A stretch of DNA of 64,000 nt, taken from assembly GCA_964531455.1 (NCBI GenBank), contig CAZHFZ010000010.1, forward strand, positions 8,806 through 72,805, read 5' to 3'. Origin of the DNA: an uncultured Bordetella sp. (GTDB taxonomy: Bacteria; Pseudomonadota; Gammaproteobacteria; Burkholderiales; SG8-41). The notes below the pieces were generated by a model. It was not told the DNA's origin and ran no database searches. It saw only the letters and a program-made list of their open reading frames with translations. Below are positions 3,312 to 41,074 of this stretch, one piece after another (position 1 is the first letter of the stretch; every line of letters starts with the position of its first letter). The position numbers and the translations under genes were made by a program.

Positions 3312-3359
3312 CCACGGAGATCACGGAGACCCCCCGGGTTTTTCTGCACAGCCGTTTTT

Positions 3360-5618: not shown

Positions 5619-5645
5619 GCCCCGCGAAGGGCGCGGTTTTCGTAC

Positions 5646-23203: not shown

Positions 23204-23262
23204 ATGGAACTTTCTCCCCCTTGCTTTGGTTGTCACCAGGGCCGGAAGGGGATATCCTTAAA

Positions 23263-23276
23263 TATCAATAACATGC
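23263..23276 (+). promoter_or_regulatory. 14-nt motif TATCAATAACATGC, copy 1 (upstream of mshE)
   Basis: An exact second copy lies at 26832..26845, upstream of the first pilin gene. The flanks are also related (ATATCCT vs ATATTTCCT). Confidence 0.35.
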
Positions 23277-23343
23277 GCGATGCGCGCAGATGCAGGGCAA
23301 CGGCAATGGTTGGCGTGCCCGGCATCATTTTGAGCGAAACTCT

Positions 23344-25050
23344 ATGGGTCGTCCTGAAAAAATCCGGCTGGGTGAAATCCTTGTCCAGCAGAAGCTGCTC
23401 ACCGAAGAGCAGCTGAAAGCGGCCCTTGATGAGCAGAAAAAAACCGGACGGCGTCTGGGCCGGGTTTTCATCGAGCGCGGCTTCATTACCGAAGAGCAGA
23501 TTTCCAAGGCTCTTGCGCGCCAACTCGGCGCCGATTACATCGACCTCAAGCACTACAACATCAAGCGTGATGTGGTCGCCCGCCTGCCCGAAACGCAGGC
23601 GCGCCGTTATCGCGCGATGGTGCTGCAAGATCGCGGCACGGCCTACCTTGTCGGCATGGCCGATCCCTCCGATCTCGCGGCCTATGACGAAATTGCGCGC
23701 ATTCTCAAGCGCGACATCGAGCTGGCGGTGGTCACCGAGACCGAACTGCTGCGCACCATCGACCGCAGCTATCGGCGTACCGAGGAAATCACCGGGCTCG
23801 CACAGGAGCTGCAGGCCGAAATCGGCGACTCCGGCGCAGTGGATTTCGGTGCGCTCTCGACAACACCGGGGCTTGAGGAAGCGCCGGTCGTCAAATTGCT
23901 GCAGACCGTGTTTGAGGATGCCACCCAGGCGCGCGCTTCCGACATTCACATCGAGCCGCAGGAGCGGCGTCTGCAGATCCGTTTCCGCATCGACGGCCTG
24001 CTGCACCTGCAAACTGAAGCCGACAGCAAGATTGCCTCGGCAGTGGTGCTGCGGCTGAAGCTGATGTCCGGGCTCGACATTGCCGAGAAGCGCATGCCGC
24101 AGGACGGACGTTTCAACGTCAAGGTGCGCAATGCGGCTGTCGATGTGCGGATATCGACGATGCCCACGCAGTACGGCGAATCGGTGGTGATGCGCCTGCT
24201 CAATCAAGGCAGCGGCATACTCGGACTTGAAAACATCGGCATGCCTGAAGCCATGCTCGACAAGGTGCGCGAGGTGATCCACCGCCCCAGCGGCATGGTG
24301 CTGGTCACCGGCCCCACCGGCAGCGGCAAGACCACCACGCTGTACGCCGCCCTCAATGAGCTGAACACCGCCGAACGCAAAATCATTACCGTTGAAGACC
24401 CGGTCGAATATCGCCTGCCCGGCATCAACCAGGTGCAGGTCAATGAAAAAATAGAACTGACATTTGATCGCGTGCTCCGCTCCGCGTTGCGTCAGGATCC
24501 GGACGTCGTGCTGGTGGGCGAAATGCGCGACGAGAATACGGTTGAAACCGGCCTGCGCGCGTCAATGACCGGCCACATGGTGTTTTCCACACTGCACACC
24601 AACGATGCGGTCAGCACACCGATTCGCCTGCTCGACATGGGGGCACCGCGTTACATGGTCGCGCTTTCGCTGCAACTGGTCATCGCTCAGCGCCTGCTGC
24701 GCGTGATCTGTGAAAGCTGCATTGAAGACTACGAACCGCTGCCGTCCGAGCATGAATGGCTGCGCAGCGAACTCGGCGACAGCGTTGATCAATACCGCTT
24801 CAAGCGGGGTCGCGGCTGTTCACACTGCAACGGCACGGGCTTTGTCGGACGCACGGGCGTGTACGAAATGCTGGAAATGACCAAGTCTGTGGTCGAAGCC
24901 GCCAACCAGGACGATGTACAGCAGTTCATGAAGATTGCCCGCGCGCAGATCGGCCGGGAGACATTGCGCCACCACGCCGCCGAGCTTGCGGCCAGCGGCC
25001 GCACCACGCCCAACGAGGCGATGCGCATCAGCAGCCAGCTCGACGAGTAA
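23344..25050 (+). CDS. mshE: MSHA-type pilus extension ATPase MshE (GspE/PilB family)
   Basis: Walker A GPTGSGKTT and a tetracysteine cluster (CESC ... CSHCNGTG). The N-terminus carries two tandem RLGxx..Q MshEN-type repeats. Start at ATG 23344. Confidence 0.9.
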   Translation: MGRPEKIRLGEILVQQKLLTEEQLKAALDEQKKTGRRLGRVFIERGFITEEQISKALARQLGADYIDLKHYNIKRDVVARLPETQARRYRAMVLQDRGTAYLVGMADPSDLAAYDEIARILKRDIELAVVTETELLRTIDRSYRRTEEITGLAQELQAEIGDSGAVDFGALSTTPGLEEAPVVKLLQTVFEDATQARASDIHIEPQERRLQIRFRIDGLLHLQTEADSKIASAVVLRLKLMSGLDIAEKRMPQDGRFNVKVRNAAVDVRISTMPTQYGESVVMRLLNQGSGILGLENIGMPEAMLDKVREVIHRPSGMVLVTGPTGSGKTTTLYAALNELNTAERKIITVEDPVEYRLPGINQVQVNEKIELTFDRVLRSALRQDPDVVLVGEMRDENTVETGLRASMTGHMVFSTLHTNDAVSTPIRLLDMGAPRYMVALSLQLVIAQRLLRVICESCIEDYEPLPSEHEWLRSELGDSVDQYRFKRGRGCSHCNGTGFVGRTGVYEMLEMTKSVVEAANQDDVQQFMKIARAQIGRETLRHHAAELAASGRTTPNEAMRISSQLDE

Positions 25051-25055
25051 GCGCC

Positions 25056-26285
25056 GTGCCTTTTTTTACCTACAAGGGACGCGATGGCCGGGGTGAGGCG
25101 GTGCAAGGCGTGCTGGAGGGTGCGGACAGCGGCGCCGTGGCGGGACAGCTGTTTGGTTCCGGCATCGTGCCGCTCGAAATCACACCATCGGCGCCGCCGC
25201 GTGAAAAAAACGAATTTCTCGACAAACTCTTCAACAAGGGCAAGGTCAGCCATACCGACGTGTTGCTCTACAGCCGCCAGATGTTCACGCTGCTCAAGGC
25301 CGGTGTGCCGATCATGGGTGCGTTGAAGGGGCTGGAAGATTCCACCGACAACAAGCGTTTTGCGGAAGTTGTGCGTGACGTTCGCGAGAGCCTCGACACC
25401 GGCCGCGAAATGTCAGCATCGCTGGCGCGCCATCCGGATGTGTTTTCGCAGTTTTATACGTCGATGGTCAGCGTGGGCGAGCAGACCGGGCGGCTGGAGG
25501 AGGTGTTTCTGCGGCTGTTCGAACACCTTGAGTTCGAGAAATTCATGCGCGAACAGATCAAGGCCGCCCTGCGCTACCCGTCGTTCGTGATTGCGACCAT
25601 GGGTGTTGCCATCGTTGTCATCAATATTTTCGTCATCCCCGCGTTCGCCAAGGTCTACCAAGGGTTCAAGACCGAGTTGCCGCTGATGACCAAGGTACTG
25701 ATCGGCTTTTCGAATTTCATGGCCGACAACTGGTATTTCATACTTGCTGCATTCATAGGTCTGGTATTTGCATTCCGGGCATGGACCGCCAGTGCCCGGG
25801 GTCGCATGCAGTGGGATCACATCAAGCTGCGCATTCCCATCGCCGGTCCGATAGTGCTGAAAGCGACGCTGGCGCGGTTTGCGCGGAGTTTCTCGATGGC
25901 CTTCCGCAGTGGCGTACCGGTGACCAGTGCGCTGGCCATGGTTGCCGGCACCGTCGACAACGTGTTTGTGGCCGAGCGCATCAATCGCATGCGCGAGGGC
26001 GTCGAACGTGGCGAATCAATACTGCGCACCGCGCGCGACGCCAAAGTGTTCACCCCGGTGGTGCTGCAGATGATCGCGGTGGGCGAGGAATCCGGCGCAC
26101 TGGACGACCTGACCTCGGAAATCGCCGACCTGTATCAGCGCGAAGTCGAATATGAAATCAAGAACCTCAGTGCGCAGATCGAACCCATCCTGATTGTCGC
26201 GCTGGGCATCATGGTGCTGATCCTTGCGCTCGGTGTGTTCCTGCCGATCTGGGATCTCGGCAATGCGGCTCTCGGCAAGAAATAG
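25056..26285 (+). CDS. mshG: Pilus platform protein MshG (GspF/PilC family)
   Basis: PFFTYKGRDGRGE N-terminus, two T2SSF repeats and three TM segments. Confidence 0.9.
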   Translation: MPFFTYKGRDGRGEAVQGVLEGADSGAVAGQLFGSGIVPLEITPSAPPREKNEFLDKLFNKGKVSHTDVLLYSRQMFTLLKAGVPIMGALKGLEDSTDNKRFAEVVRDVRESLDTGREMSASLARHPDVFSQFYTSMVSVGEQTGRLEEVFLRLFEHLEFEKFMREQIKAALRYPSFVIATMGVAIVVINIFVIPAFAKVYQGFKTELPLMTKVLIGFSNFMADNWYFILAAFIGLVFAFRAWTASARGRMQWDHIKLRIPIAGPIVLKATLARFARSFSMAFRSGVPVTSALAMVAGTVDNVFVAERINRMREGVERGESILRTARDAKVFTPVVLQMIAVGEESGALDDLTSEIADLYQREVEYEIKNLSAQIEPILIVALGIMVLILALGVFLPIWDLGNAALGKK

Positions 26286-26289
26286 GGGG

Positions 26290-26793
26290 ATGATCCGCAG
26301 CGCGCGCGGCTTTTCCCTGCTGGAACTGTCTGTGGTTGTCGCAGTGTGGGCTGTTCTGTTCGGTGTTTTTCTGGAACGCCTCACTTATTACCAGGAGGCT
26401 GCTGAACACGCACGCTTCGAATCCGAACTGCAGTCTTTTAAAACCGGTTTGCAGTTGCGCATGGCGGAACTGATTTCGACGAACCGGGAACGCGAGTTGC
26501 GGCAGATGGAAACTGACAACCCCTTGCTTTGGTTGGGTCAGGCGCCCGCGACTTATTCCGGTGAGTACCCGAGCAACCCCGAGCCTGGCAATTGGTACTA
26601 TGATTCAATGACCCGTGAACTGGTCTATGTGCCTAATTTGAAACGATTTCTGAAAATCAGTGAGTTCCGTCGACCTGTTCAGTTACGGTTTCGGGTCAAG
26701 ATCAGCTATCAGCCGGTGTATGCGCCGGGCGGGCAAATCAGCGGTGTCGCCGGAATCGGACTGGAAGCATCAACACTTTATCAATGGTTGTGA
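26290..26793 (+). CDS. MshF-like protein with prepilin-type N-terminus
   Basis: MIRSARG/FSLLELSVVV leader and hydrophobic helix. AGGGGG SD upstream. Sits after mshG, as mshF does in Vibrio. Confidence 0.6.
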   Translation: MIRSARGFSLLELSVVVAVWAVLFGVFLERLTYYQEAAEHARFESELQSFKTGLQLRMAELISTNRERELRQMETDNPLLWLGQAPATYSGEYPSNPEPGNWYYDSMTRELVYVPNLKRFLKISEFRRPVQLRFRVKISYQPVYAPGGQISGVAGIGLEASTLYQWL

Positions 26794-26831
26794 ATACAAT
26801 TTCCAGTATGCGCGGTCCATATTTCCTGTAT

Positions 26832-26845
26832 TATCAATAACATGC
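26832..26845 (+). promoter_or_regulatory. 14-nt motif TATCAATAACATGC, copy 2 (upstream of pilin genes)
   Basis: Exact repeat of 23263..23276, 27 nt upstream of the pilin ATG at 26872. Confidence 0.35.
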
Positions 26846-26871
26846 ATTCCATTTCGCGTGACAAAAATCAC

Positions 26872-27354
26872 ATGTCCAATTCCCGTCGCGTTTCCGGTTT
26901 TACATTGATTGAGTTGATTGTCGTCATCATCCTCCTTTCAATTCTTGCCGCAACAGCACTGCCACGCTTCGCCAACCTGCAGGTGCAGGCGCGTATCGCC
27001 AAGCTGAATGGTGCGCTGGGCGCGGTGAAAGGCGCTTCTGCATTGGCCCACGCGGCCTGCCTTGCGTCGACCCCGCAGTGCAGCGCGACGCTGTTGATGG
27101 AAGGCGTCAATGTCACCATGGTCAATACCTATCCGACCGCAGATGCGGCGGGTATTGTCACCGCAGCGGGTTTGAATGTAGGCCCTACCTCGGCTGATGG
27201 TTACAACATTCAGGGTGGAGGTGCTGCAGCCGGTACTCCGGTGACTGTAATGGTGCTGGGTAATGATCCGCCCAACTGCAGCTTTACTTACACATCGCCG
27301 GTTGCGGCCAGTCAATCGCCGGTATTTGGAATTCTGGTAACGTCGGGCTGTTAG
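26872..27354 (+). CDS. Type IV pilin, MshB-like (minor pilin by position)
   Basis: Prepilin leader MSNSRRVSG/FTLIELIVV with Glu5, and two Cys pairs. Confidence 0.8.
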   Translation: MSNSRRVSGFTLIELIVVIILLSILAATALPRFANLQVQARIAKLNGALGAVKGASALAHAACLASTPQCSATLLMEGVNVTMVNTYPTADAAGIVTAAGLNVGPTSADGYNIQGGGAAAGTPVTVMVLGNDPPNCSFTYTSPVAASQSPVFGILVTSGC

Positions 27355-27404
27355 CCCGGTACTTTTTGCAGCAGCGCATTTCGGTTTTGCTTAAGGAGGT
27401 CTCA

Positions 27405-27854
27405 ATGAAACGGCAACAGGGTTTTACGATTATCGAATTGATCGTGGTTATCGTCGTGCTGGGTATTCTGGCAGCGACTGCGATTCCGCGTTTTGCCAAT
27501 GTCGGCGTCGAGGCGCGCATTGCGTCGATGCGCGGCGTTGAGGGCAGCATGAATTCGGCGAAGGAAATCGTGCGTGCCAAATGGTATGCCGCGGGCTCGG
27601 CTACTCTGGCAACGGTGACTGCCGCTGACGGCACAAGTATCGGAGTACAGACAACGCCTGCGGCCCGTGCGGGTTATCCGACGGCTCAGGGTATGGATGA
27701 TGCTTTGAATGTCGGCGGCGGGATTGATTGCACTGTCGCTGCTGGTGTGACGACTTGCATCCCGCAAGGTTTTGCAGCTTGCACCGTGACCTACACCGAA
27801 GCCACGGCACTCGTAGATGCTGGTGCGCTGAACGCGACCAACTGCGGCGGCTGA
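27405..27854 (+). CDS. mshA: Type IV pilin, probable major subunit MshA
   Basis: Leader MKRQQG/FTIIELIVV with Glu5. It has the strongest SD in the locus (AAGGAGG) and is followed by a hairpin terminator. Confidence 0.75.
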   Translation: MKRQQGFTIIELIVVIVVLGILAATAIPRFANVGVEARIASMRGVEGSMNSAKEIVRAKWYAAGSATLATVTAADGTSIGVQTTPAARAGYPTAQGMDDALNVGGGIDCTVAAGVTTCIPQGFAACTVTYTEATALVDAGALNATNCGG

Positions 27855-27898
27855 TCGTAACAGCGCAACCGGCCCGCATCCGCGGGTGACAGCGCAGC

Positions 27899-27936
27899 GG
27901 GTGAGGGTGGCGATGAGCGACCTTCACCCGTTTTTA
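27899..27936 (+). terminator. Hairpin terminator/attenuator after the major pilin gene
   Basis: Stem GGGTGAGGGT/ACCTTCACCC (one mismatch), an 11-nt loop, then GTTTTTATTT. Confidence 0.6.
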
Positions 27937-27947
27937 TTTGTGGTGCC

Positions 27948-28409
27948 ATGACATACGCCAACCGCCAATGTAAACGAGGGTTCACGACCATTGAATTGGT
28001 CGTGACCATTGTTATGATCGGCACGCTGGCCGCATTGGCGGTACCGCGGTTCATCGGTCGGGACAGCTTCGACTCGCGCGGGTTTTACGATAAATCCGCT
28101 GCGATCGTCCGCCTAGCGCAAAAGACGGCTGTGGCCTGGCGCCGCAACGTGTTTGTCTGCGTGACGGCGACGCAGGTGACTGCAGGTACTGCCGTGGGTT
28201 GCGGCACGCCGCTGACCAATCCCGTCGGCGGTGGCGCTGCCACTGAAACGGCGCCTTCAGGTGTCACGCTGAATACAGTGACCTTCAGCTTCGACCGTCT
28301 TGGACGTCCGAGCGCGGCCGCGACCATCACGTTTTCCACCACGATTTCCGGCGACATCACGCGCCAGATCAGCGTTGCAGCAGAGACCGGTTATGTCGCC
28401 GCAAACTGA
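27948..28409 (+). CDS. Minor pilin, MshC-like (GspH/FimT-like)
   Basis: Leader MTYANRQCKRG/FTTIELVVT. Confidence 0.7.
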   Translation: MTYANRQCKRGFTTIELVVTIVMIGTLAALAVPRFIGRDSFDSRGFYDKSAAIVRLAQKTAVAWRRNVFVCVTATQVTAGTAVGCGTPLTNPVGGGAATETAPSGVTLNTVTFSFDRLGRPSAAATITFSTTISGDITRQISVAAETGYVAAN

Positions 28410-28998
28410 GCACCAGTCGCTATGGTCGCGGTGCCGCCAGTGCGGCGCGTCACTCGTTGAGTTGATCATGTTTATCGTGGTGATCGGTGCGGGGTTGGCC
28501 GGGATTATCGGCATATGGCAAACCACCGCGCAGGGCAGCGCCGATCCGCTGATCCAGAAACAGGCATTGGCCATCGCGGAGGCTTATCTTGAAGAAGCAC
28601 TGGCCATGCCGTTTACCTATTGCGATCCCAATGATGCCAATGCAGCGACGGCAACATCGGCGGCGCTGGGCATCGTGCCCACGCTTTGCGCAACGACACT
28701 GGAGAGCATCGGTCCCGAAGCCGGTGAAACGCGCGGCAGTGCGACGACGCCGTTCGACAACGTCAATGATTACAACGGGCTGGCCGGCGTGCCGGCGTCG
28801 ATTGAAGGCCTGGCGACTGCGGGGCTGGGCGCGTACCAGGTGTCGGTAGCCGTGGTCGGGCAAAACCTTGTGGCCACCACGGCCACCGTTGCCGCGGCTG
28901 CAAGCCAGCGTGTTACGGTCACGGTGACCGGCCCCGCCAATATCACGGTCAGGCTGGACGGGTATCGCACACGTTATGCGCCGAATGCGCTGCCCTGA
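28393..28998 (+). CDS. Minor pilin, MshD-like
   Basis: Leader ...RQCG/ASLVELIMFIVV, with Ala rather than Phe at +1 and Glu5 retained. Start at ATG 28393, overlapping the upstream gene. Confidence 0.65.
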   Translation: MSPQTEHQSLWSRCRQCGASLVELIMFIVVIGAGLAGIIGIWQTTAQGSADPLIQKQALAIAEAYLEEALAMPFTYCDPNDANAATATSAALGIVPTLCATTLESIGPEAGETRGSATTPFDNVNDYNGLAGVPASIEGLATAGLGAYQVSVAVVGQNLVATTATVAAAASQRVTVTVTGPANITVRLDGYRTRYAPNALP

Positions 28999-29002
28999 AC
29001 CC

Positions 29003-29833
29003 ATGCCGCATTTTCCCCTGAACCCGCAACGCGGCGTCACGCTCATTGAGCTGGTGATGGTGATCGTGGTCACCGGCATCATCGCTGCCGGGGTTGCGGT
29101 TTTTATCCAGCGCCCGGTTGAAGGCTATATCGATGCCGGCCGGCGTGCCACGCTGACCGACGAGGCGGACACTGCTCTGCGCCGCATCACCCGGGATTTG
29201 CGCACGGCCCTGCCCAACAGCGTGCGTGTTGATCCCAGCGGCAGGTTCATCGAATTCATCGAGACGGTCGGTGGCGGACGTTACCGCGCCGAGCTCGACA
29301 GTATCGGCGGTGGCCAGATACTTGATTTCACGGCGGCGGATACTACTTTTGATGTCCTCGGTCCGGTGCCGCCGCTCAGCGCCGGCAATCATATTGTTGT
29401 CTACAATCTGTTCAGCACCGGCACGGTATCGAACGCCTATCAGGGCAGCAACCGCGCCTCGTTTGTCAGTGTGGCTGCGCCGACCATCACGATTGCGCCG
29501 GTCATCAGTCTGCCGTTTCCGGAACCATCCCTGGCCAAGCGTTTTCACGTGGTCACAGGGCCGGTGACCTACGGCTGTGTCGGCACCCAACTGTTGCGTT
29601 ACTCCGGTTATGCCTACAACACCGCACAGGTGGCGCCCCCGGCGGGCGGCAGCAGTGCGGTACTGGCGGCGAATATCGATGCCGCAGCGTGCAATTTTGC
29701 CTATGCGGAAGGCTCCTTGGGGGAGCGTACTGGCACGGTGTCGATGATTCTGCAAATTAACAGCCTTGCTGCAGGCGGGGCCACCGAGAGGGTGCGACTG
29801 TTCCAGCAGGCGCAGATCAACAACTCGCCATGA
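29003..29833 (+). CDS. mshO: MSHA biogenesis protein MshO (pseudopilin-like)
   Basis: Leader MPHFPLNPQRG/VTLIELVMVIVV, followed by QRPVEGY..ADTALRRITRDLR as in MshO. Confidence 0.75.
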   Translation: MPHFPLNPQRGVTLIELVMVIVVTGIIAAGVAVFIQRPVEGYIDAGRRATLTDEADTALRRITRDLRTALPNSVRVDPSGRFIEFIETVGGGRYRAELDSIGGGQILDFTAADTTFDVLGPVPPLSAGNHIVVYNLFSTGTVSNAYQGSNRASFVSVAAPTITIAPVISLPFPEPSLAKRFHVVTGPVTYGCVGTQLLRYSGYAYNTAQVAPPAGGSSAVLAANIDAAACNFAYAEGSLGERTGTVSMILQINSLAAGGATERVRLFQQAQINNSP

Positions 29834-30345
29834 ACATGCGTTGCATTCCACAACACGTACGCGGCTTCAGCCTGATCACCGCAATTTTTCTGCTGGTGGT
29901 GCTGGCCTCGCTGGGCGCATTCATGGTGATTTTCACCGGGCTCCAGCAAAGCACGGTGCAGGCAGATGTGCTCGGCGTGCGCGCCTATTACGCCGCGCGC
30001 GCTGGGGCCGAGTGGGGGCTGTACCGCACCCTGGATCCCGACAACACCATCGCGCCGGGTCCTGCAGGGTTTGTGACCTGTCCGCAGGCGGCGGGAACCC
30101 TGAATACGATGGGCGGATCGCTGTCGCCGTTTACCGTGGTGGTGACTTGCCAGGTGACAGCGCCGGATCCTACCGAGGGTGCCAAGACCTTGCGCGTGTT
30201 CCAGATCACGGCAACCGCCTGCAACAGCGCGACTTGTCCTGCCGCATCGCCGCCGTCCGGATACGTAGAACGTCAGATTGCCGTCACTGTGGCGAAATGC
30301 AAAGACCCGGCTGCGCCGGCGCCGCGATACGAGTGCGGGTCTTAA
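29830..30345 (+). CDS. mshP: MSHA biogenesis protein MshP (pseudopilin-like, no Glu5)
   Basis: Leader ...QHVRG/FSLITAIFLLVV, followed by AYYAARAGAEWG. ATGA overlap with mshO. Confidence 0.7.
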   Translation: MNMRCIPQHVRGFSLITAIFLLVVLASLGAFMVIFTGLQQSTVQADVLGVRAYYAARAGAEWGLYRTLDPDNTIAPGPAGFVTCPQAAGTLNTMGGSLSPFTVVVTCQVTAPDPTEGAKTLRVFQITATACNSATCPAASPPSGYVERQIAVTVAKCKDPAAPAPRYECGS

Positions 30346-30458
30346 ATGTTATTAAAATCAATAGGTTATATTGAATCAGAAGTGGGCGCTGATACCAGTG
30401 ATCGTTTCAGGCGCAAACCTTGCTCGAGCAAGAAATGATCGAATTACCGATACCAACC

Positions 30459-33400: not shown

Positions 33401-34394
33401 GGCCTGTGCGGGTTTCAGTTATGTCGGACAGAGCTTCAACTATACAACCGTGCCGGTGATGACGATCACGGCGCGCAACGGCACGAACAACGGCCTCACC
33501 AATGCCACGACGGTCAACTACGCCGGCAGTTATGCGAAGTTCACCAATGCCCAGCTGGCGCTGGCGCCTTACGACACGAAGGCTGGCCGATATCTGCGCT
33601 TTGATACTTTGGGCGGGGGCAACACGCCGGACCTCGACCGCAGCGGCTTGCCGGATCCACTGACTGCAGACCCGGTGATCAGTGCATTCACTGCCGGTGT
33701 GGGAACGTTTACGTTTTCCGGGGGTACCGGGTTCGGTTTTGCGCGCAGCGCTGCGACGCCCAGCGCGCCTTTCGATGCCGACATCGCACTGCGCCTGAAC
33801 GTCATCGATACCGATAGTGTCGAATTTGCCGGCAATCCTGCTTCATTCGGCACCGCCAGTTCTGGTGGCGGCATCCTGTTCAGTGATGGTATTGCGGCAA
33901 CCACCACCGACAAGCTGCAGCGCTACGGTCGACTGCGCATCGGCGGCGCCAGCGGGTCGCAGGTGTTGCCGCTGCGACTGCCGGTGGAGGCGCAGTACTG
34001 GACCGGCACCGCATTCGTGACCAATACGCTGGATTCATGCACCACGCTGGCCGCGAACAATGTCGGGCTCGGCAATTACAGTGGTAGTCTCAATGTCGGT
34101 GAAACCACGCCGAGCATTGTCAGCAGTCCCTTGCAGGCAGGACGTAGCGCGATTCGGCTGAGTGCGCCGGGTTCCGCCAACCCGGGCAGCGTGGATGTCA
34201 CGCTGAATCTCGGCGGCGGCGCAACGGCGGATGCCTGTCCTGCATTTGCGCCGGCAGCTGTTGCGGGCAATAAAACTCATCTGCGTGGAGCCTGGTGCAA
34301 TCCCCCGGGCACTTACACCAAGGATCCTTCAGCCAGGGCGCGGTTCGGTGTCACGCGTGGGGCCGATCAGTCGATATATCGTAGGGAGCAGTAG
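30459..34394 (+). CDS. mshQ: MshQ-like giant pilus-associated protein (~1,311 aa); start uncertain (TTG 30420 / ATG 30435 / ATG 30459)
   Basis: Signal peptide (LTVLSASDVRAQA). Terminal position in the structural operon. The C-terminal third (..QRYGRLRIGGASGSQVLPL..AQYWTG...DPSARARFGV..IYRREQ) resembles the MshQ/DUF6701 C-terminus as I remember it. Confidence 0.7.
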   Translation: MLINLSAQLCVAHCWRIVRRRLSALSILSVMVLTVLSASDVRAQAGFQAAGAAQSGTGAVTVPWPAHQAGDIALLFVESRQAEAVTLSTPAGFAAVANSPQFTASDALAPNTGTRLTVFWARATSAAMASPTVADPGDHVHARILTYRRVVSSGTPWDVTGGGAESGANNTTLSVTGVTTTVDNTRVVQAASRNNDSATTGFSGQTNLGLTGIGERSDTGTNLGDGGGIGVWDGLRVVAGVIGPTAVTVTSSVNAFLTIALRPATTYYSRASAGWSVGTTWSTEGCNGVTASAAPYAGSDVVICNGHTVTLDTNSANLNSLNIQTTGVLNIGSSGAGRTLTVSPALPSPPGTIINDGTLRYNTAGNHTITTNGTFTNNGTFTSAAGIAGTRSFTATGLITNTGTIRFNGTAVTTINANGGFTNNGTFDVDAASNLTHTFNVRSTFTNNGTVQFRPDGNSFVSTNFTTGAPVVGSVLTGSAGSTTFYNATVNNSGGLTLSGTHNMNVLNALTLTTGPIITNANYVYVASTTAIASVGGNDFVIGNLRMNFNAGANITRVFAVGSGLAPNARYTPVNIRFGSVTATGDFTVSTTGADHPQIGTSPINPAQSVNRFWTLTNDSVGFQSVNGNNRVIFTYVNPADIDVGVAVPFVVGRYNAPTWTSITPTVAVPNVTLPAAAVTNATMAGSADYVIGEAAPVVPPPGDLNAFETTTGAGAITGRIFTKLVGTNFNLDIVAILAGAQHATFTNTVLVDLVTGSTGGLNCPGAPVAIAGTSQNVNLVNGRGTTGAFNIAATAYRDVRVRVRFPVIAPTVTSCSTDNFSIRPTALTVTSSNATQTGTSGTPAIKTGANFNLAATAIPGYDGTPTINNALVTGTPTAGTIGGSFGVAPIGTGIAAGNSFFYSEVGHFGLGTNAVFDSGFTSVDSGGGDCTNDFSNALVGGRYGCNFGSTAVTQSTGVSGFGRFIPDNFNVTYNVPAIAPACAGFSYVGQSFNYTTVPVMTITARNGTNNGLTNATTVNYAGSYAKFTNAQLALAPYDTKAGRYLRFDTLGGGNTPDLDRSGLPDPLTADPVISAFTAGVGTFTFSGGTGFGFARSAATPSAPFDADIALRLNVIDTDSVEFAGNPASFGTASSGGGILFSDGIAATTTDKLQRYGRLRIGGASGSQVLPLRLPVEAQYWTGTAFVTNTLDSCTTLAANNVGLGNYSGSLNVGETTPSIVSSPLQAGRSAIRLSAPGSANPGSVDVTLNLGGGATADACPAFAPAAVAGNKTHLRGAWCNPPGTYTKDPSARARFGVTRGADQSIYRREQ
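31581..31807 (+). repeat. Intragenic repeats encoding FTNNGT(F/V) beta-strand motifs in mshQ
   Basis: TTCACCAACAACGGAAC occurs exactly at 31581 and 31719. A variant, TTCACCAATAACGGCAC, occurs at 31791. Confidence 0.8.
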
Positions 34395-34449
34395 TTCGGG
34401 CACTAGCAGTAGTAGGTCATAAATGGATGATTTTTTAAATATTCAATTA

Positions 34450-34462
34450 AATCAATTGGTTA
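34450..34462 (+). promoter_or_regulatory. IHF-consensus-like site in the mshQ-mshI spacer
   Basis: AATCAATTGGTTA fits WATCARNNNNTTR at every specified position. Confidence 0.3.
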
Positions 34463-34486
34463 ATAATATTCATGCGATTTTGTAAA

Positions 34487-34514
34487 TTGACGCACATCAG
34501 AAAAGCATTATAAG
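34487..34514 (+). promoter_or_regulatory. Candidate sigma-70 promoter for the mshI-N operon
   Basis: TTGACG, a 16-nt spacer, then TATAAG, about 65 nt upstream of the mshI ATG in a 184-bp AT-rich spacer. Confidence 0.4.
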
Positions 34515-34578
34515 TATTTGACAACATTGGAAAATATGCTAGTTTTGGCCAATTTGGTGCAACACGGCTCAGGAACCC

Positions 34579-35511
34579 ATGAATCTGTTCGGTAAAAGTC
34601 GGCGTCCCGGCTGGTTGTGCCTCAACCTGCATCCTGATCGGGTGGACCTCTCGCACGTTCTGCTTGCAGGCAAGCCGCGCCCCGAAGTGTTGTTGTGCGA
34701 GTCGTTTCGCAAGGAAGGCGACGATGTCGTGACACTCAAACGGCTGCGGCGTGAACTCGGCCTTGACCGCTATCACTGCATGACCATGCTGAAGACGCAT
34801 GACTATCAGATGTTTCCGGTGGACGCTCCGAAGGTGCCGGAGGCCGAGGCCCGCAGCGCGGTGCGCTGGGCTATCAAGGACATGCTGGACTATCCCGTTG
34901 ATGCGGCGATGGTGGATGCCGTGAGCGTACCCGCGAACGAGGCTGGCGGACGGGCTGCGCAGATGCTGGCTGTGGCCGCGCGCAACGAACTGATCGCGTC
35001 GACAGTAAAGCCGTTTAATGACGCCAATATAGAACTCGATGTGATCGACATTCCCGAGTTTGCGCAGCGCAATGTTGCGAAGCAGCTTGAGGACCAAGGC
35101 CGCGGACTGGCGATGCTGTGTTTTGATGAGGCTGCGGCGACTCTGACATTTACCAGTGGTGGTGAACTTTATCAGTCGCGGCGAATCGATGTTTCGATGA
35201 AGGATTTCGCCGGCGATGCGCCTGCGGAAAGTCTTTACGACCGCGTCGCACTCGAATTGCAGCGTTCGCTCGACCATTTTGACCGGCAGTTCCGCAATGT
35301 TGCCGTGTCGCGCGTGGTGATCTCGCAGGTGCCGGGCGGGGATAAGCTGGCTGAATACCTCAACAGCAATCTGACGCTGCCGGTGGAAATGTTCGACCTG
35401 GAAAAGATCATGGATTTTCCGGGTGTGCCGGAGTTGCGCGACCCGTTGCGGCAGACACAATGTCTGCAACTCATCGGCGCAGCGATGCGCGAAGAGGTTG
35501 CGGCGCGATGA
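34579..35511 (+). CDS. mshI: MSHA biogenesis protein MshI (PilM-like)
   Basis: The N-terminus, ...GWLCLNLHPDRVDLSHV.. followed by PEAEARSAVRWAIKDMLDYPV, is typical of MshI/PilM-like proteins. The long antisense ORF 34447..35469 is rejected. Confidence 0.8.
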   Translation: MNLFGKSRRPGWLCLNLHPDRVDLSHVLLAGKPRPEVLLCESFRKEGDDVVTLKRLRRELGLDRYHCMTMLKTHDYQMFPVDAPKVPEAEARSAVRWAIKDMLDYPVDAAMVDAVSVPANEAGGRAAQMLAVAARNELIASTVKPFNDANIELDVIDIPEFAQRNVAKQLEDQGRGLAMLCFDEAAATLTFTSGGELYQSRRIDVSMKDFAGDAPAESLYDRVALELQRSLDHFDRQFRNVAVSRVVISQVPGGDKLAEYLNSNLTLPVEMFDLEKIMDFPGVPELRDPLRQTQCLQLIGAAMREEVAAR

Positions 35512-36188
35512 GCCAGTACATCAACCTTCTCGGCCCGTTATTCCGCAGACAGCGCCTGGCGCTGTCGTTGAATCGCGCAGCGCTGTTACTGGGTTTTACG
35601 CTGGCGGCTTTGCTGATGGTACTGGCGTATGAAGATCAGCGCGTCGAGGGTTTGCGCGAGGAACTGGCTTCAGCGCAGGCGCTGATGAAGGCGCAGAACG
35701 CCTATACCAGCCGGCTCAAGGGCGATGGTGCGGAAAAGGGCGCGACGGCAATCGACAATGACATCCAGAGGCTGGAGGCCGATTTGAAATCGGCGCGAGA
35801 CAGCATGGACGTGCTGGAAGGCGGCGCATTGGGCAACCGCGACGGTTTCGCGCGTTACATGCAGGCGTTTTCCCGGCAGGCCATTGACGGGTTATGGTTG
35901 ACTGGTTTCTCTGTCGGGGGCGCCGGCGATGTGAGCATTCAGGGGCGCGTCGTCAAAGCCGAGCTTGTGCCGACCTACATTCAGCGTTTGAACAACGAGC
36001 CGGCGCTGAAGGGCCGCGCATTTTCCGCCCTGGAAGTCCATCGGCCTGTGCCGAAAACCGGTGCTGATGCGGCAGGCGGTAAAGAGGTGCAGGCGGACCC
36101 GGGCGCCGCGCCGCGTTACTTTGAGTTTGCGCTGGCTACTTCCGAGCCTGCGGCTCAGGGCGCCGAAGCGCGCGGGGAGAAACGCTGA
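35508..36188 (+). CDS. PilN-like MshI2 component
   Basis: MSQYINLLGP (INLL motif), a single TM helix and a coiled coil. ATGA overlap with mshI. Confidence 0.7.
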   Translation: MSQYINLLGPLFRRQRLALSLNRAALLLGFTLAALLMVLAYEDQRVEGLREELASAQALMKAQNAYTSRLKGDGAEKGATAIDNDIQRLEADLKSARDSMDVLEGGALGNRDGFARYMQAFSRQAIDGLWLTGFSVGGAGDVSIQGRVVKAELVPTYIQRLNNEPALKGRAFSALEVHRPVPKTGADAAGGKEVQADPGAAPRYFEFALATSEPAAQGAEARGEKR

Positions 36189-36874
36189 TGCGCCGTTTCG
36201 CCGTAATGTGGCGGCAATTTAGCGATAAATTTGCCATTCGTTCACTGCGCGAACGTGCGCTGATGACGGGTGGTGCGATTGCTGTGGTGGTTCTGCTGTT
36301 CGATGCGCTGGCGCTGAATCCGCTTGCAGTCCAGCATAAACGGTTGAACGGGCAGGTTGCCGAGGCCCGTGCCGCGATCAAGGCTGGTGAGCAGGTGCTT
36401 GCGGCTGGAGGTGAAACGGCTGACCCGGATGAAGTGAAGCGCCGGTATCGTGACGGACTGCGCAAGCAGATTGCCGAAATTGACGGAAAATTGCAGGGTT
36501 TGCAGAAGCAACTGGTGCCGCCGGACCAGGTCGCAAACCTTCTTGAGGGCGTACTGGCGCGTGAGCGCGGTTTGGCGTTGGTGAGCCTGCGCAAACTACC
36601 GGTGCAGCAGTTCCAGACCACCGCAGGTTCAGCGGTCAAGAGCAGTGAAGGCAAGGGCGGCGCTTCGGCTGAGCGCAGCATTTATCAGCACAGTTTCGAA
36701 ATCGAGATCGAAGGCTCCTATGTCGAGTTGCACGGGTATCTGGCGCATCTCGAGAAGCTCCCCTGGCAATTATTCTGGGGCAAGGCTGAACTCGATGCGG
36801 GAAAGCATCCGCGCCTGATACTGAAGCTAACAGTGCATACTCTGAGCATGAACAAAGTCTGGTTGGTTGTATGA
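36188..36874 (+). CDS. mshJ: MSHA biogenesis protein MshJ (PilO-like)
   Basis: N-terminal TM helix plus a coiled coil, with a C-terminal FEIEIEGSY..L..LE motif. Overlaps its neighbours. Confidence 0.75.
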   Translation: MRRFAVMWRQFSDKFAIRSLRERALMTGGAIAVVVLLFDALALNPLAVQHKRLNGQVAEARAAIKAGEQVLAAGGETADPDEVKRRYRDGLRKQIAEIDGKLQGLQKQLVPPDQVANLLEGVLARERGLALVSLRKLPVQQFQTTAGSAVKSSEGKGGASAERSIYQHSFEIEIEGSYVELHGYLAHLEKLPWQLFWGKAELDAGKHPRLILKLTVHTLSMNKVWLVV

Positions 36875-37230
36875 AGTTATTGCTTGCACTGGTTTTGGGA
36901 ATAGCAACTACGGGTCTAGCGGCGGCGCAGGCCATGTCCGATCCAACGCGTCCACCCGGTGGGCTTGCGGACGCCTCCGAAGCTGTCGGTACAGGTGGTC
37001 CGGTGCTACAGTCCGTCATGTTGTCGCCATCGCGCAAGGTGGCGGTGATCAGTGGCGAAATGGTGGTGTTGGGCGGGCGTTATGGTTCATCCCGGCTGGT
37101 GCGTTTGACCGAGACCGAGGCAGTATTGAAAAATGGTGCAGACGTGACCGTATTGCGGCTGCATCCCCAGGTCGTCAAGCGCACGGCTGGTTCCGAAGCT
37201 GGTAAAAACGTCACGAAGACAACAAAGTGA
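36871..37230 (+). CDS. mshK: MSHA biogenesis protein MshK
   Basis: Signal peptide, a DPTRPPGG motif, and small size. ATGA/GTGA overlaps on both sides. Confidence 0.7.
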   Translation: MKLLLALVLGIATTGLAAAQAMSDPTRPPGGLADASEAVGTGGPVLQSVMLSPSRKVAVISGEMVVLGGRYGSSRLVRLTETEAVLKNGADVTVLRLHPQVVKRTAGSEAGKNVTKTTK

Positions 37231-39005
37231 ACATCATCAGGCGGAACAATATAAAACCTTGGGCAGCCCTTGCGATCATCGTGCTGATGGCGGGCTGTGC
37301 GGAGACCCCGCGCCAGCAGGGCAGCGCTACTCTGGATTCCATTAATCGCGAACTCGATCAGGCTGCGCAGAACCGCAAGGTTGTGCCGCCATCTGATGCG
37401 GTCAGTCGCGCATTGCTGCCGCCGCTGATGGTTGAAATGCCGCGGGCAGATACGCAAAAACCCGACACGCGTTTTGATCTGTCGGTCAGCAACGCCCCGG
37501 CCAGCCAGGTTTTTCTGGCGATCGTATCCGGTACCCGCTACAGCATGGTGCTGCATCCCGACGTCAAGGGCGACCTGTCGGTGAACCTCAAGGATGTGAC
37601 CGTCACCGAGGCCCTTGATACGCTGCGGGATCTTTATGGTTTCGATTACATTGCGCAGGGCAACCGCATCACGGTTCTGCCTGCGACGCTGCAAACCCGC
37701 ATTTTCAAGGTGAACTACCTGCAGGCGCTGCGTCGCGGTCAGACCGAAACCCGCGTCAGCTCCGGTTCCATTACCGACGGCTCGAGCAGCCCCGGTTCGC
37801 CGGCCCCCGGTGCGACACCTGTCCCGACAACGGGGCCGACCGGTTCGAGCGGCACCAGGGCAACGGAGAGTTCCCGGGTCACTACGACTTCTGATTCCAA
37901 TTTCTGGGGCGACACCCAGAAATCGCTGACCGCGATACTCGGTGGTGCACCAGGACGTAGCGTCGTGGTCAATCCGCAATCCGGCGTGATCGTTGTTCGT
38001 GCAATGCCGAACGAACTGCGCGGCGTCGAGCAGTTCCTCGGTGCAATGCAGCTGATTGTCGAGCGCCAGGTCATGCTGGAAGCCAAGATCATCGAGGTCA
38101 CGCTGCGTGACGGGTTTCAGGCGGGTATCAACTGGGCGGGCTTCCGTGATGGCAACACACGTTTCGGTGCCGGCGTCATAACACCTGGCACCGTTTTGCA
38201 GCGGGAAGGGGCCATCGGTTCGGCGACTGCCAGGGCTCCGGACGGCACGCTGCGGGCGGACTCAGTTTTTGCCGGGGGTTCTGTCGGTGCGGTGGCGAGC
38301 GGCCTTGCACTGGGCGCAGGCGCTGCGGGCGGATTGTTCGGTTTGGCCTTGCAGACCCAGAATTTCGCCGCTTTGCTGACGTTCCTGGAGACTCAGGGCG
38401 GCGTCAACGTGCTGTCGAGCCCGAGGGTGGCGACGATCAACAACCAGAAAGCCGTGCTGAAGGTGGGCACCGACGACTTCTTCGTCACTAACGTCAGCAC
38501 CACGTCGAGTACCAGCGGTACCAGCACCACCGTGACGCCGACCATTACCGTGGCACCGTTTTTCTCGGGCATCGCACTTGATGTGACGCCACAGATCGAC
38601 GACAACAGCAGCATCATCCTGCACATTCATCCGTCGGTCAGCAATGTTGTCGAGAAGAACAAGATCATCGATCTCGGGACGCTGGGCGTATTTACGCTGC
38701 CGCTGGCGTCGAGCGAAGTCAATGAAACCGATACCATCGTACGCGTCACCGACGGCAATATCGTTGCCATCGGCGGTTTGATGCGCCAGAAGTCGAGCAG
38801 CGAACGCAGTCAGGTTCCCGGCCTCGGGAATGCGCCCGGTATCGGGAATCTTTTCCGCCAGCGTGATACCACCAGCACCAAGAGCGAGCTCGTGATCCTG
38901 CTGAAGCCGACCATCATCCACAGTGATCGCAACTGGCAGGAAGATCTCGTGCAGACGCGTGAACGCATCCGGGCCATGAGCGCACCGCCAGAAGCGAAGC
39001 GGTGA
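37227..39005 (+). CDS. mshL: MSHA-type secretin MshL (lipoprotein)
   Basis: Lipobox LMAGC and secretin C-domain motifs (VLSSPRVATINNQKAVLKVGTD, VPGLGNAPGIGNLFR). Confidence 0.9.
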   Translation: MNIIRRNNIKPWAALAIIVLMAGCAETPRQQGSATLDSINRELDQAAQNRKVVPPSDAVSRALLPPLMVEMPRADTQKPDTRFDLSVSNAPASQVFLAIVSGTRYSMVLHPDVKGDLSVNLKDVTVTEALDTLRDLYGFDYIAQGNRITVLPATLQTRIFKVNYLQALRRGQTETRVSSGSITDGSSSPGSPAPGATPVPTTGPTGSSGTRATESSRVTTTSDSNFWGDTQKSLTAILGGAPGRSVVVNPQSGVIVVRAMPNELRGVEQFLGAMQLIVERQVMLEAKIIEVTLRDGFQAGINWAGFRDGNTRFGAGVITPGTVLQREGAIGSATARAPDGTLRADSVFAGGSVGAVASGLALGAGAAGGLFGLALQTQNFAALLTFLETQGGVNVLSSPRVATINNQKAVLKVGTDDFFVTNVSTTSSTSGTSTTVTPTITVAPFFSGIALDVTPQIDDNSSIILHIHPSVSNVVEKNKIIDLGTLGVFTLPLASSEVNETDTIVRVTDGNIVAIGGLMRQKSSSERSQVPGLGNAPGIGNLFRQRDTTSTKSELVILLKPTIIHSDRNWQEDLVQTRERIRAMSAPPEAKR

Positions 39006-39017
39006 TACGCTTGACCC

Positions 39018-39917
39018 ATGTACGAATCGCACTTCGGTCTGCGTGAACCCCCGTTCGGCATCACGCCGGACACCAGTTTTGCCTATGCCTGCAACTCCCA
39101 TCAGGAGGCGTTGAATACGCTTCTCGTTGCTGCGCGCAACGGCGAGGGGTTCATGAAGGTGACCGGCGAAGTCGGCACCGGCAAGACACTGTTGTGCCGG
39201 AGGTTTCTGGCGACCCTGGATGCGCGCTTTGTCTCAGCCTATATCCCCAATCCCTACCTGGAGCCGCGCACACTGATGTTTGCGCTGGCCGATGAACTCG
39301 GCATCACGCTGCCGCGTGAAGCGGATCAGCATCATCTGCTGAAGGAGCTTTCACGGGCGCTGCTCAATTTTGCCCGGCAGGGCAAGACCGTTGTGCTTTG
39401 CCTCGACGAGGCGCAGGCCATGCCGCAGGAAACGCTGGAGGCGTTGCGACTGCTGACCAATCTCGAGACCGAGAAACGCAAGCTGCTGCAAGTGGTGTTG
39501 TTTGGCCAGCCGGAACTGGACCAGCGGCTGGCGCAAACTTCGATACGCCAGCTGCGGCAGCGCATCACTTTTCAGTACCGCCTGTCGATGCTGAAAGAAA
39601 AAGAGGTTGATCACTATCTTTCCCACCGCTTGCGGGTCGCCGGTTACCGCGGCGGCCAGTTGTTTGTGCCCGCCGCCGTGCGGCGTCTGCATCGCGCCAG
39701 CGGAGGGGTGCCGCGTCTGATCAATATCATGGCGCACAAGTCCCTGTTGTTGGCGTTTGGCGAAGGCGTGCAGCAGGTGCTGCCACGGCATGTGCGCAGT
39801 GCTGCAGCGGATACTCCCGTGGCCGGAGCTGCGCGCTGGCGCTTGTTCGCGCTGTTTGCAGTGCTGACTGCTGTCGCCGCAGTTGCGATTGCCGTTTCCG
39901 TGGGGTGGCCGGCATGA
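39018..39917 (+). CDS. mshM: MshM (ExeA-like AAA ATPase)
   Basis: FGLREPPF N-terminus, Walker A GEVGTGKT, and a C-terminal TM segment. Confidence 0.85.
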   Translation: MYESHFGLREPPFGITPDTSFAYACNSHQEALNTLLVAARNGEGFMKVTGEVGTGKTLLCRRFLATLDARFVSAYIPNPYLEPRTLMFALADELGITLPREADQHHLLKELSRALLNFARQGKTVVLCLDEAQAMPQETLEALRLLTNLETEKRKLLQVVLFGQPELDQRLAQTSIRQLRQRITFQYRLSMLKEKEVDHYLSHRLRVAGYRGGQLFVPAAVRRLHRASGGVPRLINIMAHKSLLLAFGEGVQQVLPRHVRSAAADTPVAGAARWRLFALFAVLTAVAAVAIAVSVGWPA

Positions 39918-41074
39918 GCGTGATCAATCAGATGTTGCTGGATCTGGAGCGGCGCCGTGCGTCAGGTGAGGAATGCGACCGGATTCCCGACCACGTGCGG
40001 GCATTGCCGGGGAGTTCTTCTGCGCCACGTGACTATGCGCTGCAATTGATCGTTGTCGCCGTACTGGTGGTGCTGGCGGTGGCGGGCGGCGCTTACTGGT
40101 GGTGGCAATATGGAATCCCGGGCCTTGCCAAGCCGCCGCTGATCGCGCCCGTGAGTGAGCATGAAAATGCCGAGCGTATTGCACGACGCATGAGCCTGGA
40201 TCTGGCGAAGACGCCGCCGTTGGCGGACGCGCCGCCTGTGACCGATGCCGCTGCGCCGACAGGGATCCCCACGCAATCGGTTATCGTCAGCGAGCCGCCG
40301 GCATGGGCGACGTCCCGCGTTGAGCAGCCCCCGGTAGTTGCCCGCAGCGAACCAGCAGCCGAACCGGCGCAGCCTGCGAATGAACCAGAGCGCCGAGCTG
40401 TTCCGAAACCTGCGGCAAAGCCTGCTGCAGCGGTCGAGGCACCCGTTGTGGCTAAAACGACCGCAGTTTCGCCAGTGCCCGCCGGAATCGATAAGCGGAT
40501 GCGCGATCAGACTCCGCGGCAACGTGCTGAAGTGGAATACACGCGCGGCGCATCGGCCCTGCAACAGGGCCGGCTTGCCGAGGCACGCAGCGGATTCGAG
40601 GCAGCGCTGCAAACCGATCCGGCGTATCACGCAGCAAGGCAGGCGTTGGCAGGTGTGTTGCTTGATGCAGGTCAACCAGCCGAGGCGATGCTGATTCTGC
40701 AGGAAGGTTTGCAGCTCGCTCCAACACAATTCGGTTTTGCGATGATGGCCGCACGCCTGCATGTTGACCGCGGTGAAATCGATGCGGCCGTGCAGACGCT
40801 GGCGCGGAGTGCCGACTATGCCGGCAACAGCGCGGATTACGCAGGGTTCTACGCCGGCTTGCTGCAACGCCAGAAAAAACACGCCGAGGCAGTCGGCATG
40901 TTTGATCGTGCACTGCGTTTGCGACCCAATTCCGGTGTCTGGTTGCTGGGCATGGGGATCTCGCTGGAAGCGCTGGGGCGTGGCGCTGAGGCGCAGGAGT
41001 CGTTTCGACGGGCCAGGGCCACCGGCAATCTGACGCCGGAGTTGCAGACTTTCGCCGATCAGCGCTTGCGCTGA
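39914..41074 (+). CDS. mshN: MshN (TPR-repeat protein)
   Basis: MSVINQMLLDLERR N-terminus, one TM helix, a Pro/Ala-rich linker and C-terminal TPR-like repeats. ATGA overlap with mshM. Confidence 0.75.
   Translation: MSVINQMLLDLERRRASGEECDRIPDHVRALPGSSSAPRDYALQLIVVAVLVVLAVAGGAYWWWQYGIPGLAKPPLIAPVSEHENAERIARRMSLDLAKTPPLADAPPVTDAAAPTGIPTQSVIVSEPPAWATSRVEQPPVVARSEPAAEPAQPANEPERRAVPKPAAKPAAAVEAPVVAKTTAVSPVPAGIDKRMRDQTPRQRAEVEYTRGASALQQGRLAEARSGFEAALQTDPAYHAARQALAGVLLDAGQPAEAMLILQEGLQLAPTQFGFAMMAARLHVDRGEIDAAVQTLARSADYAGNSADYAGFYAGLLQRQKKHAEAVGMFDRALRLRPNSGVWLLGMGISLEALGRGAEAQESFRRARATGNLTPELQTFADQRLR

Follow-up and report, generated by a model that had tools for sequence, protein, structure and literature searches.

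A probable MSHA-type type IV pilus gene cluster at the trmL / comF-bioB site of an uncultured betaproteobacterium

The 64-kb stretch of contig CAZHFZ010000010.1 (uncultured Bordetella sp.) analysed here, referred to as the window, contains 17 intact open reading frames (ORFs) that fill positions 23290/23344-41074 of the plus strand without interruption, between trmL and comF/gntX. The locus raises the question which of several related machineries it encodes, a pilus of the mannose-sensitive haemagglutinin (MSHA) type, a type II secretion system (T2SS) or a conventional type IVa pilus (T4aP), and whether it is still in use. An initial annotation, made from the sequence of the window, had proposed a complete MSHA locus in an unusual gene order. 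The region is read here, with a probability of about 0.9, as a complete and functional MSH-class (MSHA-type) type IV pilus cluster that was vertically inherited at the trmL / comF-bioB site in Betaproteobacteria. The genes present, their families and order, their conservation and the purifying selection on them were determined directly. The identification as such is correct; the gene cluster and its order are already known in dozens of related species and labelled by public pipelines.

Gene content and family assignment

The presence of 17 same-strand genes, as initially annotated, is confirmed by the ORFs and by public contigs of 99.9% DNA identity, on which the same 17 genes are called. Direct reading of the junctions likewise bears out the reported abundance of short overlaps: ATGA is found at O/P, I1/I2, J/K and M/N, GTGA at K/L and TGATG at I2/J. 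The C and D genes overlap by 17 nt, and E/G, G/F and D/O are spaced by 4-5 nt. Within the locus, only two gaps reach 100 nt: P-Q (203 nt if mshQ starts at 30549) and Q-I1 (184 nt, 37% GC).

Families were called with Pfam and NCBIfam hidden Markov models (HMMs) using equivalog cut-offs, complemented by PDB structure matches and JGI/IMG names. The window products were also compared by tblastn with the MSHA locus of Aeromonas caviae NZ_AP026896.1 (PLSDB; locus L089). Related loci were collected by scanning one genome per species with the secretin; at least 499 relatives were found, and nearly all of the best 80 carry betaproteobacterial labels.

Fourteen window products match their positional counterparts in the Aeromonas locus, and the products at the A and B positions each match both MshB and MshA. 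E-values range from 3e-4 down to 0 and are available for every product except F. The JGI/IMG names of the exact proteins are MshE, MshA (twice), MshC, MshD, MshO, MshP, MshQ, MshI, MshJ, MshK, MshM and MshN. In the published MacSyFinder model of the MSH class, mshA, mshE, mshG and mshL are mandatory, as is mshM (PMC6668835). According to the HMMs, the Aeromonas similarity and the JGI names, all five are located in this one locus, at 23344-39917. The V. cholerae MSHA locus (mshHIJKLMNEGF and mshBACDOPQ) is built from the same component families, namely MshE with an MshEN domain, MshG, the pilins, an MshQ with DUF6701 and the I-N proteins. The initial statement that every Vibrio Msh component can be matched holds for all but F, which is assigned by position only, and A and B are not matched one-to-one.

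The secretin gene mshL is located at 37227..39005. Its product passes the MshL equivalog model TIGR02519 (257.3 bits, cut-off 250.2) and stays below the cut-offs for GspD (187.9 vs 351) and PilQ (135.3 vs 284). It shares 37% identity with Aeromonas MshL, and its homologues are named MshL by both NCBI and JGI. With a lipobox (LMAG/C) whose Cys24 is invariant in the alignment, MshL is a probable lipoprotein.

The first gene of the locus, mshE (23344..25050; longest ORF from 23290), encodes an extension ATPase with a predicted c-di-GMP-binding MshEN domain at its N-terminus. The start had initially been placed at 23263; the most likely start is instead 23344 (MGRPEK), because this start and the 5' leader are conserved in the related locus L012, which belongs to the Burkholderiales metagenome-assembled genome (MAG) ACE_PRO63. 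MshE matches PF00437 (T2SSE) at 1e-131, PF05157 (MshEN) with 65.5 bits (cut-off 23.1) and NF053729, 'MshE-related c-di-GMP domain', with 76.6 bits (cut-off 38). It also matches the N-terminal domain of V. cholerae MshE (PDB 5HTL, 8e-24), is 53.5% identical to Aeromonas MshE and bears the JGI name MshE, and it remains below the equivalog cut-offs for PilB (551 vs 676) and GspE (525 vs 630). The adjacent mshG (25056..26285) encodes an inner-membrane platform protein of the GspF/PilC family (PF00482, T2SSF, 3e-57) with 45% identity to Aeromonas MshG (7e-123), again below the cut-offs for GspF (329 vs 424) and PilC (325 vs 700).

Both T2SS and T4aP share with the window an ATPase, a platform protein, a secretin, prepilins and a PilM/N/O-like alignment complex. 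The window differs from them in failing the GspD/E/F and PilB/C/Q cut-offs, in having MshQ, MshM and MshN, and in its one-locus layout. If the locus encoded a T2SS, the pilin-like proteins would build a pseudopilus in the periplasm to drive folded proteins out through the secretin, and no surface pilus would be made. The closest solved secretin structures are indeed GspD (1e-24), ahead of PilQ (3e-18), and the GspE and GspF scores come close to those of PilB and PilC. In addition, a derivation of the MSH class from T4aP, alongside T2SS, has been reported (PMC6668835), and the minor pilins C, D, O and P have GspH, I, J and K as their equivalents (PMC13533445). However, all three Gsp models fail where the MshL model passes, there is no recognisable GspC or fused GspL but a separate pair of PilM-like and PilN-like proteins, the 1281-residue MshQ and the MshM/MshN pair are features of MSH, and every product but F matches the Aeromonas MSHA locus. 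The sole T2SSM match of Pfam among the locus proteins is below threshold and falls on MshJ. A T2SS is thus considered very unlikely. The HMM comparison suggested with the initial annotation has the same outcome for T2SS, Tad and T4aP, in none of which the proteins are placed: the MshL model is passed and the Gsp and Pil cut-offs are failed.

The second block of the locus begins with mshI (I1; 34579..35511), which encodes a cytoplasmic PilM-like protein with an actin fold (PF11104, PilM_2, 32.3 bits, cut-off 27). Its best solved relative is PilM of T. thermophilus (PDB 2YCH, 8e-12). The protein is named MshI by JGI, matches Aeromonas MshI at 1.6e-10 and stays below the PilM cut-off (35 vs 133). 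The next gene, I2 (35508..36188), corresponds to Aeromonas mshI1 (3e-4) and encodes a bitopic PilN-like protein with the N-terminal motif MSQYINLLG; the PilN match (PF05137, 7e-4) is below threshold. For I2, MshJ and MshK, Pfam gives sub-threshold matches or none. An INL[LYF] motif is present at the N-terminus of I2 in at least 53 of 71 relatives, and 70 of the 71 have I1 and I2 as two separate genes. A search with I2 returned 2395 cluster representatives, and the best 150 of these, about 160-340 residues long and mostly aligned from residue 1, are without exception stand-alone proteins. The INLL N-terminus resembles the N-terminal PilN peptide that is bound by PilM in structure 2YCH. Since the genes are separate in nearly all relatives, the INL[LYF] N-terminus is conserved and 2YCH offers this likeness, I1 and I2 are best read as a PilM/PilN pair. 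Two such genes are present, as initially described under the name of a split MshI, but the split is not peculiar to the window: in Aeromonas, too, the PilM-like mshI and the PilN-like mshI1, the latter with an N-terminal INLY motif, are separate.

Downstream of I2, mshJ (36188..36874) encodes a PilO/GspM-like protein with a weak PF04612 match (JGI name MshJ; Aeromonas MshJ 2e-14), and mshK (36871..37230) a small secreted periplasmic protein with a readable signal peptide (JGI name MshK; Aeromonas MshK 5e-6). Behind mshL, the ExeA/GspA-like AAA ATPase MshM (39018..39917) matches AAA_22 (PF13401, 4e-31), is named MshM by JGI and shares 55% identity with its Aeromonas counterpart (2e-88). The last gene, mshN (39914..41074), encodes a tetratricopeptide repeat protein (TPR_19, 1e-19; JGI name MshN) that matches Aeromonas MshN over its full length (2e-25). 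MshN has been described as TadD-like by Denise et al.

The PilM- and PilN-like proteins are also among the features to be expected if the locus encoded a conventional type IVa pilus that serves in twitching or in the uptake of DNA. Among the ATPase models, PilB scores best (551 bits), and the comF/gntX gene (41081-41815, minus strand), which lies 6 nt downstream of mshN in convergent orientation, might hint at competence. Against this, the PilB, PilQ, PilM and PilC models all fail at the scores given above. The adjacency of comF is probably incidental: comF groups with the bio genes and is not adjacent to mshN in 19 of the 62 relatives, and a comF/gntX-bioH pairing occurs in E. coli as well. 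Furthermore, a single locus without PilT, PilD, PilO, PilP and PilY1 corresponds to MSH and not to the multi-locus pattern of T4aP (PMC6668835). A conventional T4aP appears just as improbable as a T2SS.

The absence of a peptidase gene agrees with the MSH assignment. As initially annotated, neither an mshH-like gene nor a prepilin peptidase or PilT-like retraction ATPase is found in the 64 kb, flanking genes being judged by their Pfam and NCBIfam labels. The lack of a prepilin peptidase from all MSH loci is a stated hallmark of the class (PMC6668835), and for the MSHA pilus of V. cholerae, PilD and PilT are unlinked (PMC7096442); the V. cholerae locus is likewise a single locus without prepilin peptidase and retraction ATPase (PMC7096442, PMC6668835). 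The lack of both genes is therefore the norm for MSH.

Pilins, MshQ and the proposed pilus

Seven pilin-like proteins are encoded between mshG and mshQ, and the prepilin N_methyl motif is found in F, B, A, C and O. The gene at the mshF position (26290..26793) encodes a prepilin-like protein (MIRSARG|FSLLELS; TIGR02532 20.9 bits, cut-off 16.3) that is conserved in relatives and carries the JGI name 'prepilin-type N-terminal cleavage/methylation domain'. Compared with Aeromonas MshF, which lacks a prepilin motif, it gives no tblastn match and an hhalign E-value of 0.06, which is not significant.

The pilin gene at the mshB position (26842..27354, likely start 26872) encodes the leader MSNSRRVSG/FTLIEL (N_methyl 8e-8), and the one at the mshA position (27405..27854) the leader MKRQQG/FTIIEL (N_methyl 3e-9). 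Both proteins are named MshA by JGI and both match both Aeromonas pilins, so that no one-to-one assignment of B and A to MshB and MshA is possible. The dN/dS ratio (nonsynonymous to synonymous substitutions) of the B pilin is 0.057 relative to L007, the closest species representative in the genome collection. The A pilin is the most divergent of six pilin-like genes in the same comparison (69% amino-acid identity, dN/dS 0.22). Because of its leader, its AAGGAGG ribosome-binding site and this divergence, the gene at 27405-27854 is the probable major pilin gene. A GC-rich, terminator-like hairpin with a T-run at 27342-27360 overlaps the stop codon of the mshB-position gene and could act as an attenuator that sets pilin stoichiometry; terminator-like sites are no more frequent in the region than in shuffled sequences.

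The four remaining genes encode minor pilins: mshC (27948..28409; GspH/FimT-like, with N_methyl and weak GspH matches; Aeromonas MshC 2e-4), mshD (28393..28998; GspI/PilV class, leader ...RQCG/ASLVEL; Aeromonas MshD 1e-10), mshO (29003..29833; GspJ/PilW class, N_methyl 2e-6; Aeromonas MshO 1e-12) and mshP (29830..30345; GspK/PilX class; Aeromonas MshP 1e-7), each with the corresponding JGI name. The MshP leader is without Glu5 (G/FSLITA). The counterparts of the minor pilins C, D, O and P are GspH, I, J and K, or FimU, PilV, W and X (PMC13533445). In the Gallionella sp. locus L072, four MshA-like pilin genes (2188-4400) stand in tandem before mshC, which suggests that some lineages have expanded or varied their pilin repertoire.

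The largest gene, mshQ (30549..34394), encodes a protein of 1281 residues with DUF6701 (PF20419, 1.5e-61) and G8 (PF10162) domains, which matches Aeromonas MshQ at 1e-13 and whose cluster members are named MshQ by JGI. The protein is modular: the C-terminal part is conserved, and N-terminal parts are variable, swapped or duplicated in relatives. MshQ has been proposed as a PilY1-like tip protein that is anchored by its C-terminus (PMC13533445, PMC7096442). The conserved C-terminus and the swapped N-terminal parts are consistent with this role, and by analogy MshQ is regarded as a large, putative tip-associated adhesin. Extra Q-like genes are found upstream in L011, L012 and L021 (around 1960-7230); they are tandem MshQ paralogues with unrelated or partly shared N-terminal regions, and their C-termini are 66-70% identical to the last ~155 residues of the window MshQ.

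By homology, the prepilins F, B, A, C, D, O and P would be cleaved by a prepilin peptidase encoded elsewhere, and the minor pilins C, D, O and P would prime the filament and carry MshQ at its tip. Binding of c-di-GMP to the MshEN domain would allow MshE to polymerise the major pilin via the MshG platform. The PilM-like MshI is expected to clamp the N-terminal INLL peptide of the PilN-like I2, which would pair with MshJ and be linked via MshK to the lipoprotein secretin MshL; MshM and MshN would probably assist secretin assembly. Retraction, if any, would depend on an unlinked PilT. The pilus is expected to serve in attachment to surfaces or in aggregation under c-di-GMP control, and an abundant uncultured freshwater betaproteobacterium can thus probably make a c-di-GMP-controlled adhesive pilus.

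Several points weigh against the identification of a complete and functional MSH pilus. The system is known here from its genes. A prepilin peptidase and PilT were not seen in the window, which covers only 64 kb of the genome. The homology of MshF is positional only, and the major pilin is a probable assignment. Finally, the MshEN domain deviates from the published pattern of two 24-residue motifs with a 5-residue spacer, for which strict and relaxed forms have been defined (PMC5013675). Motif I has a Lys at the conserved turn Gly (RLGEILVQQKLL...), which places it outside even the relaxed form, and the c-di-GMP affinity of MshE is uncertain for this reason. In Aeromonas MshE, this residue is a Gln. 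Motif II agrees with the relaxed form, with two hydrophobic substitutions relative to the strict one, and the spacer is 5 residues long (PMC5013675).

Gene order and conservation in related genomes

In the window, the E-Q block is followed by the I-N block. The order in Aeromonas is I, I1, J, K, L, M, N, E, G, F, B, A, C, D, O, P, Q, so that the two blocks are swapped. For Vibrio, Marsh and Taylor reportedly described in 1999 an msh order in which the I-N block likewise precedes E-Q. Relative to this order, the window differs from V. cholerae in having E-Q before I-N; it also lacks mshH, has a prepilin-like protein at the MshF position, a separate PilN-like gene after mshI, and Lys for Gly in MshEN motif I. 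The Aeromonas MSHA/Bfp locus agrees with the window in the 14 positional matches and in its separate mshI and mshI1, and differs in its block order, in an ORF of 647 residues at the mshH position (placed by position only) and in its MshF, which has no prepilin motif. The Aeromonas record, L089, is labelled 'plasmid pKAM479_3'; since it is 4.94 Mb long and carries a chromosomal MSHA locus, it is evidently a chromosome that is listed as a plasmid. In this record, the mshQ region is split into several ORFs.

The swapped order is typical of the relatives. The pilin/MshQ block is located directly before mshI in 53 of the 59 loci with enough upstream sequence; mshN is followed by comF in 43 of 62 loci and by mshE in none. 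The order E-Q then I-N is also found in Gallionella, Ca. Ferrigenium, Rhodocyclaceae, Thiobacillus, Dechloromonas, Accumulibacter, Oxalobacteraceae, Noviherbaspirillum and Keguizhuia, and many of these betaproteobacterial loci occupy the same trmL/comF-bioB site. As 53 of 59 betaproteobacterial loci have the swapped order, mshH and an I-N-first order are best seen as lineage traits and not as part of what defines the class. The swap of the two blocks compared with Aeromonas and Vibrio, emphasised in the initial annotation, is real but not new. For the MSH clusters of Sideroxydans ES-1 and Gallionella ES-2, Emerson et al. noted in 2013 'a significant gene rearrangement' compared with Vibrio and Pseudoalteromonas, and an unknown function (PMC3770913); MSH clusters are also present in Gallionellaceae MAGs (PMC10734482). 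The window belongs to the same lineage as these and other betaproteobacterial clusters and differs from them at the species level only.

Exceptions to the common order exist. Legionella adelaidensis shows a third gene order. In L012 (2716-21752), Q and I-N are followed by gpsA, by trmL (minus strand) and then by E, G, F, B, A, C and D; the two blocks have therefore been rearranged around the trmL junction. Two Sterolibacteriaceae loci, L065 and L085, carry C, D, O and P after comF-bioB. Block shuffling is continuing within the betaproteobacterial lineage.

Sequence constraint was estimated against L007, whose MshL is 86% identical to that of the window. For all 14 genes compared, dN/dS lies between 0.02 and 0.22 at a dS of about 1 (bioB for comparison: 0.04), which indicates a maintained function. 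MshM is at 0.024. The least constrained products are the A pilin (0.22), MshQ (0.22) and I2 (0.21); MshQ and the A pilin are also the most divergent, and their high ratios fit exposure at the surface. These values bear on the possibility that the locus is a decaying or silent remnant without current function. Such a remnant could be suspected because the locus is known from sequence alone, because MshEN motif I deviates at a conserved Gly and because MshQ is missing or weak in L050, L055, L059 and L072. On the other hand, none of the 17 ORFs is disrupted and their coupling is tight, identical proteins turn up in 86-88 blocks of the metagenome collection, and order and position are conserved across families under purifying selection. 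A remnant is therefore extremely unlikely, and the locus is probably real and functional. The synteny comparison suggested with the initial annotation came out accordingly, with intact genes, conserved order and position, and purifying selection.

The features that had been flagged as unusual, namely the gene order, the split MshI, the missing peptidase and PilT, and the host, are the ordinary state of a widespread and annotated lineage. Across Betaproteobacteria, among them iron oxidisers, Accumulibacter, Dechloromonas and Oxalobacteraceae, the MSH layout of the window is the usual one. The initial view that MSHA pili are functionally unexplored in this group stands insofar as literature searches found no genetic or biochemical study of MSH pili in any betaproteobacterium, so that the function of the pilus there stays inferred; it does not stand for the locus itself, as the layout was noted in 2013 and the proteins are named in IMG. 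Attachment to flocs, minerals or hosts and biofilm formation are candidate ecological roles.

It is possible, though doubtful, that the betaproteobacterial MSH loci form a distinct sub-lineage of ancient and vertical inheritance, perhaps an intermediate between T4aP and MSH/T2SS and/or one specialised in substrate-specific attachment. Its traits would be the fixed trmL / comF-bioB site, E-Q before I-N, a PilM-like MshI with a stand-alone PilN-like I2 bearing the INLL peptide, a genuine prepilin at the MshF position, and modular, swappable MshQ heads. Such pili might attach to mineral, floc or algal surfaces, unlike the Vibrio pilus, and could be co-regulated via a shared upstream motif and modified by a nearby PglL-like glycosyltransferase, both of which are described below.

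Candidate regulatory sites and genomic neighborhood

A 25-nt motif, AT(A/T)TCCT..A..TATCAATAACATGC, occurs twice on the plus strand, in the trmL-mshE intergenic region (23252..23276, ATATCCTTAAATATCAATAACATGC) and just before mshB (26821..26845, ATTTCCTGTATTATCAATAACATGC). The two copies (repeat family D7) are identical at 21 of 25 positions, and none is expected in shuffled sequences. The motif is conserved upstream of mshE in L012 and partly conserved upstream of mshB there. The mshB-side copy of L012 overlaps a perfect sigma-54-like site (TGGCAC-N5-TTGCT), and the corresponding match is degenerate in the window. The motif may be a shared promoter or operator that marks separate E-G-F and B-Q transcription units. 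Most of the other two-copy repeats look like chance occurrences, and D7 alone, with both copies in short intergenic regions, was kept.

The Q-I1 intergenic region (34395..34578, plus strand, 37% GC) contains TTGACG-N16-TATAAG, found by eye, and is a probable internal promoter. In most relatives, the sequence that precedes I1 is poor in GC. A sigma-54 promoter ahead of mshI (TGGC-N8-TGCA, 33 nt before the start) was also considered and rejected, being conserved only in the two closest relatives.

The locus is flanked upstream by gpmI, gpsA and trmL (22739-23236, minus strand) and downstream by comF/gntX, bioBFHC and then cox genes. GC content is 0.56-0.63 within the locus and 0.58-0.62 outside. 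No tRNAs were found in the RNA scans, and no Rfam match reaches the gathering threshold in the whole window, the only match within the locus being at chance level (E 0.28). Since its GC content matches that of the flanks and tRNAs and Rfam elements are absent, the locus is regarded as an old resident of the core genome, in agreement with the initial annotation. Recent horizontal acquisition was rejected, as GC is not anomalous, there is no tRNA and the insertion site is the same across families; the Pfam and NCBIfam labels of the flanking genes include no integrase or other mobile-element gene.

A membrane protein of 585 residues is encoded 3.3 kb upstream of mshE (18265-20022, plus strand). 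Its PglL_A, Wzy_C and Wzy_C_2 domains correspond to the architecture of a PglL-type O-oligosaccharyltransferase, and its JGI name is 'O-antigen ligase'. This PglL-like protein could glycosylate pilins.

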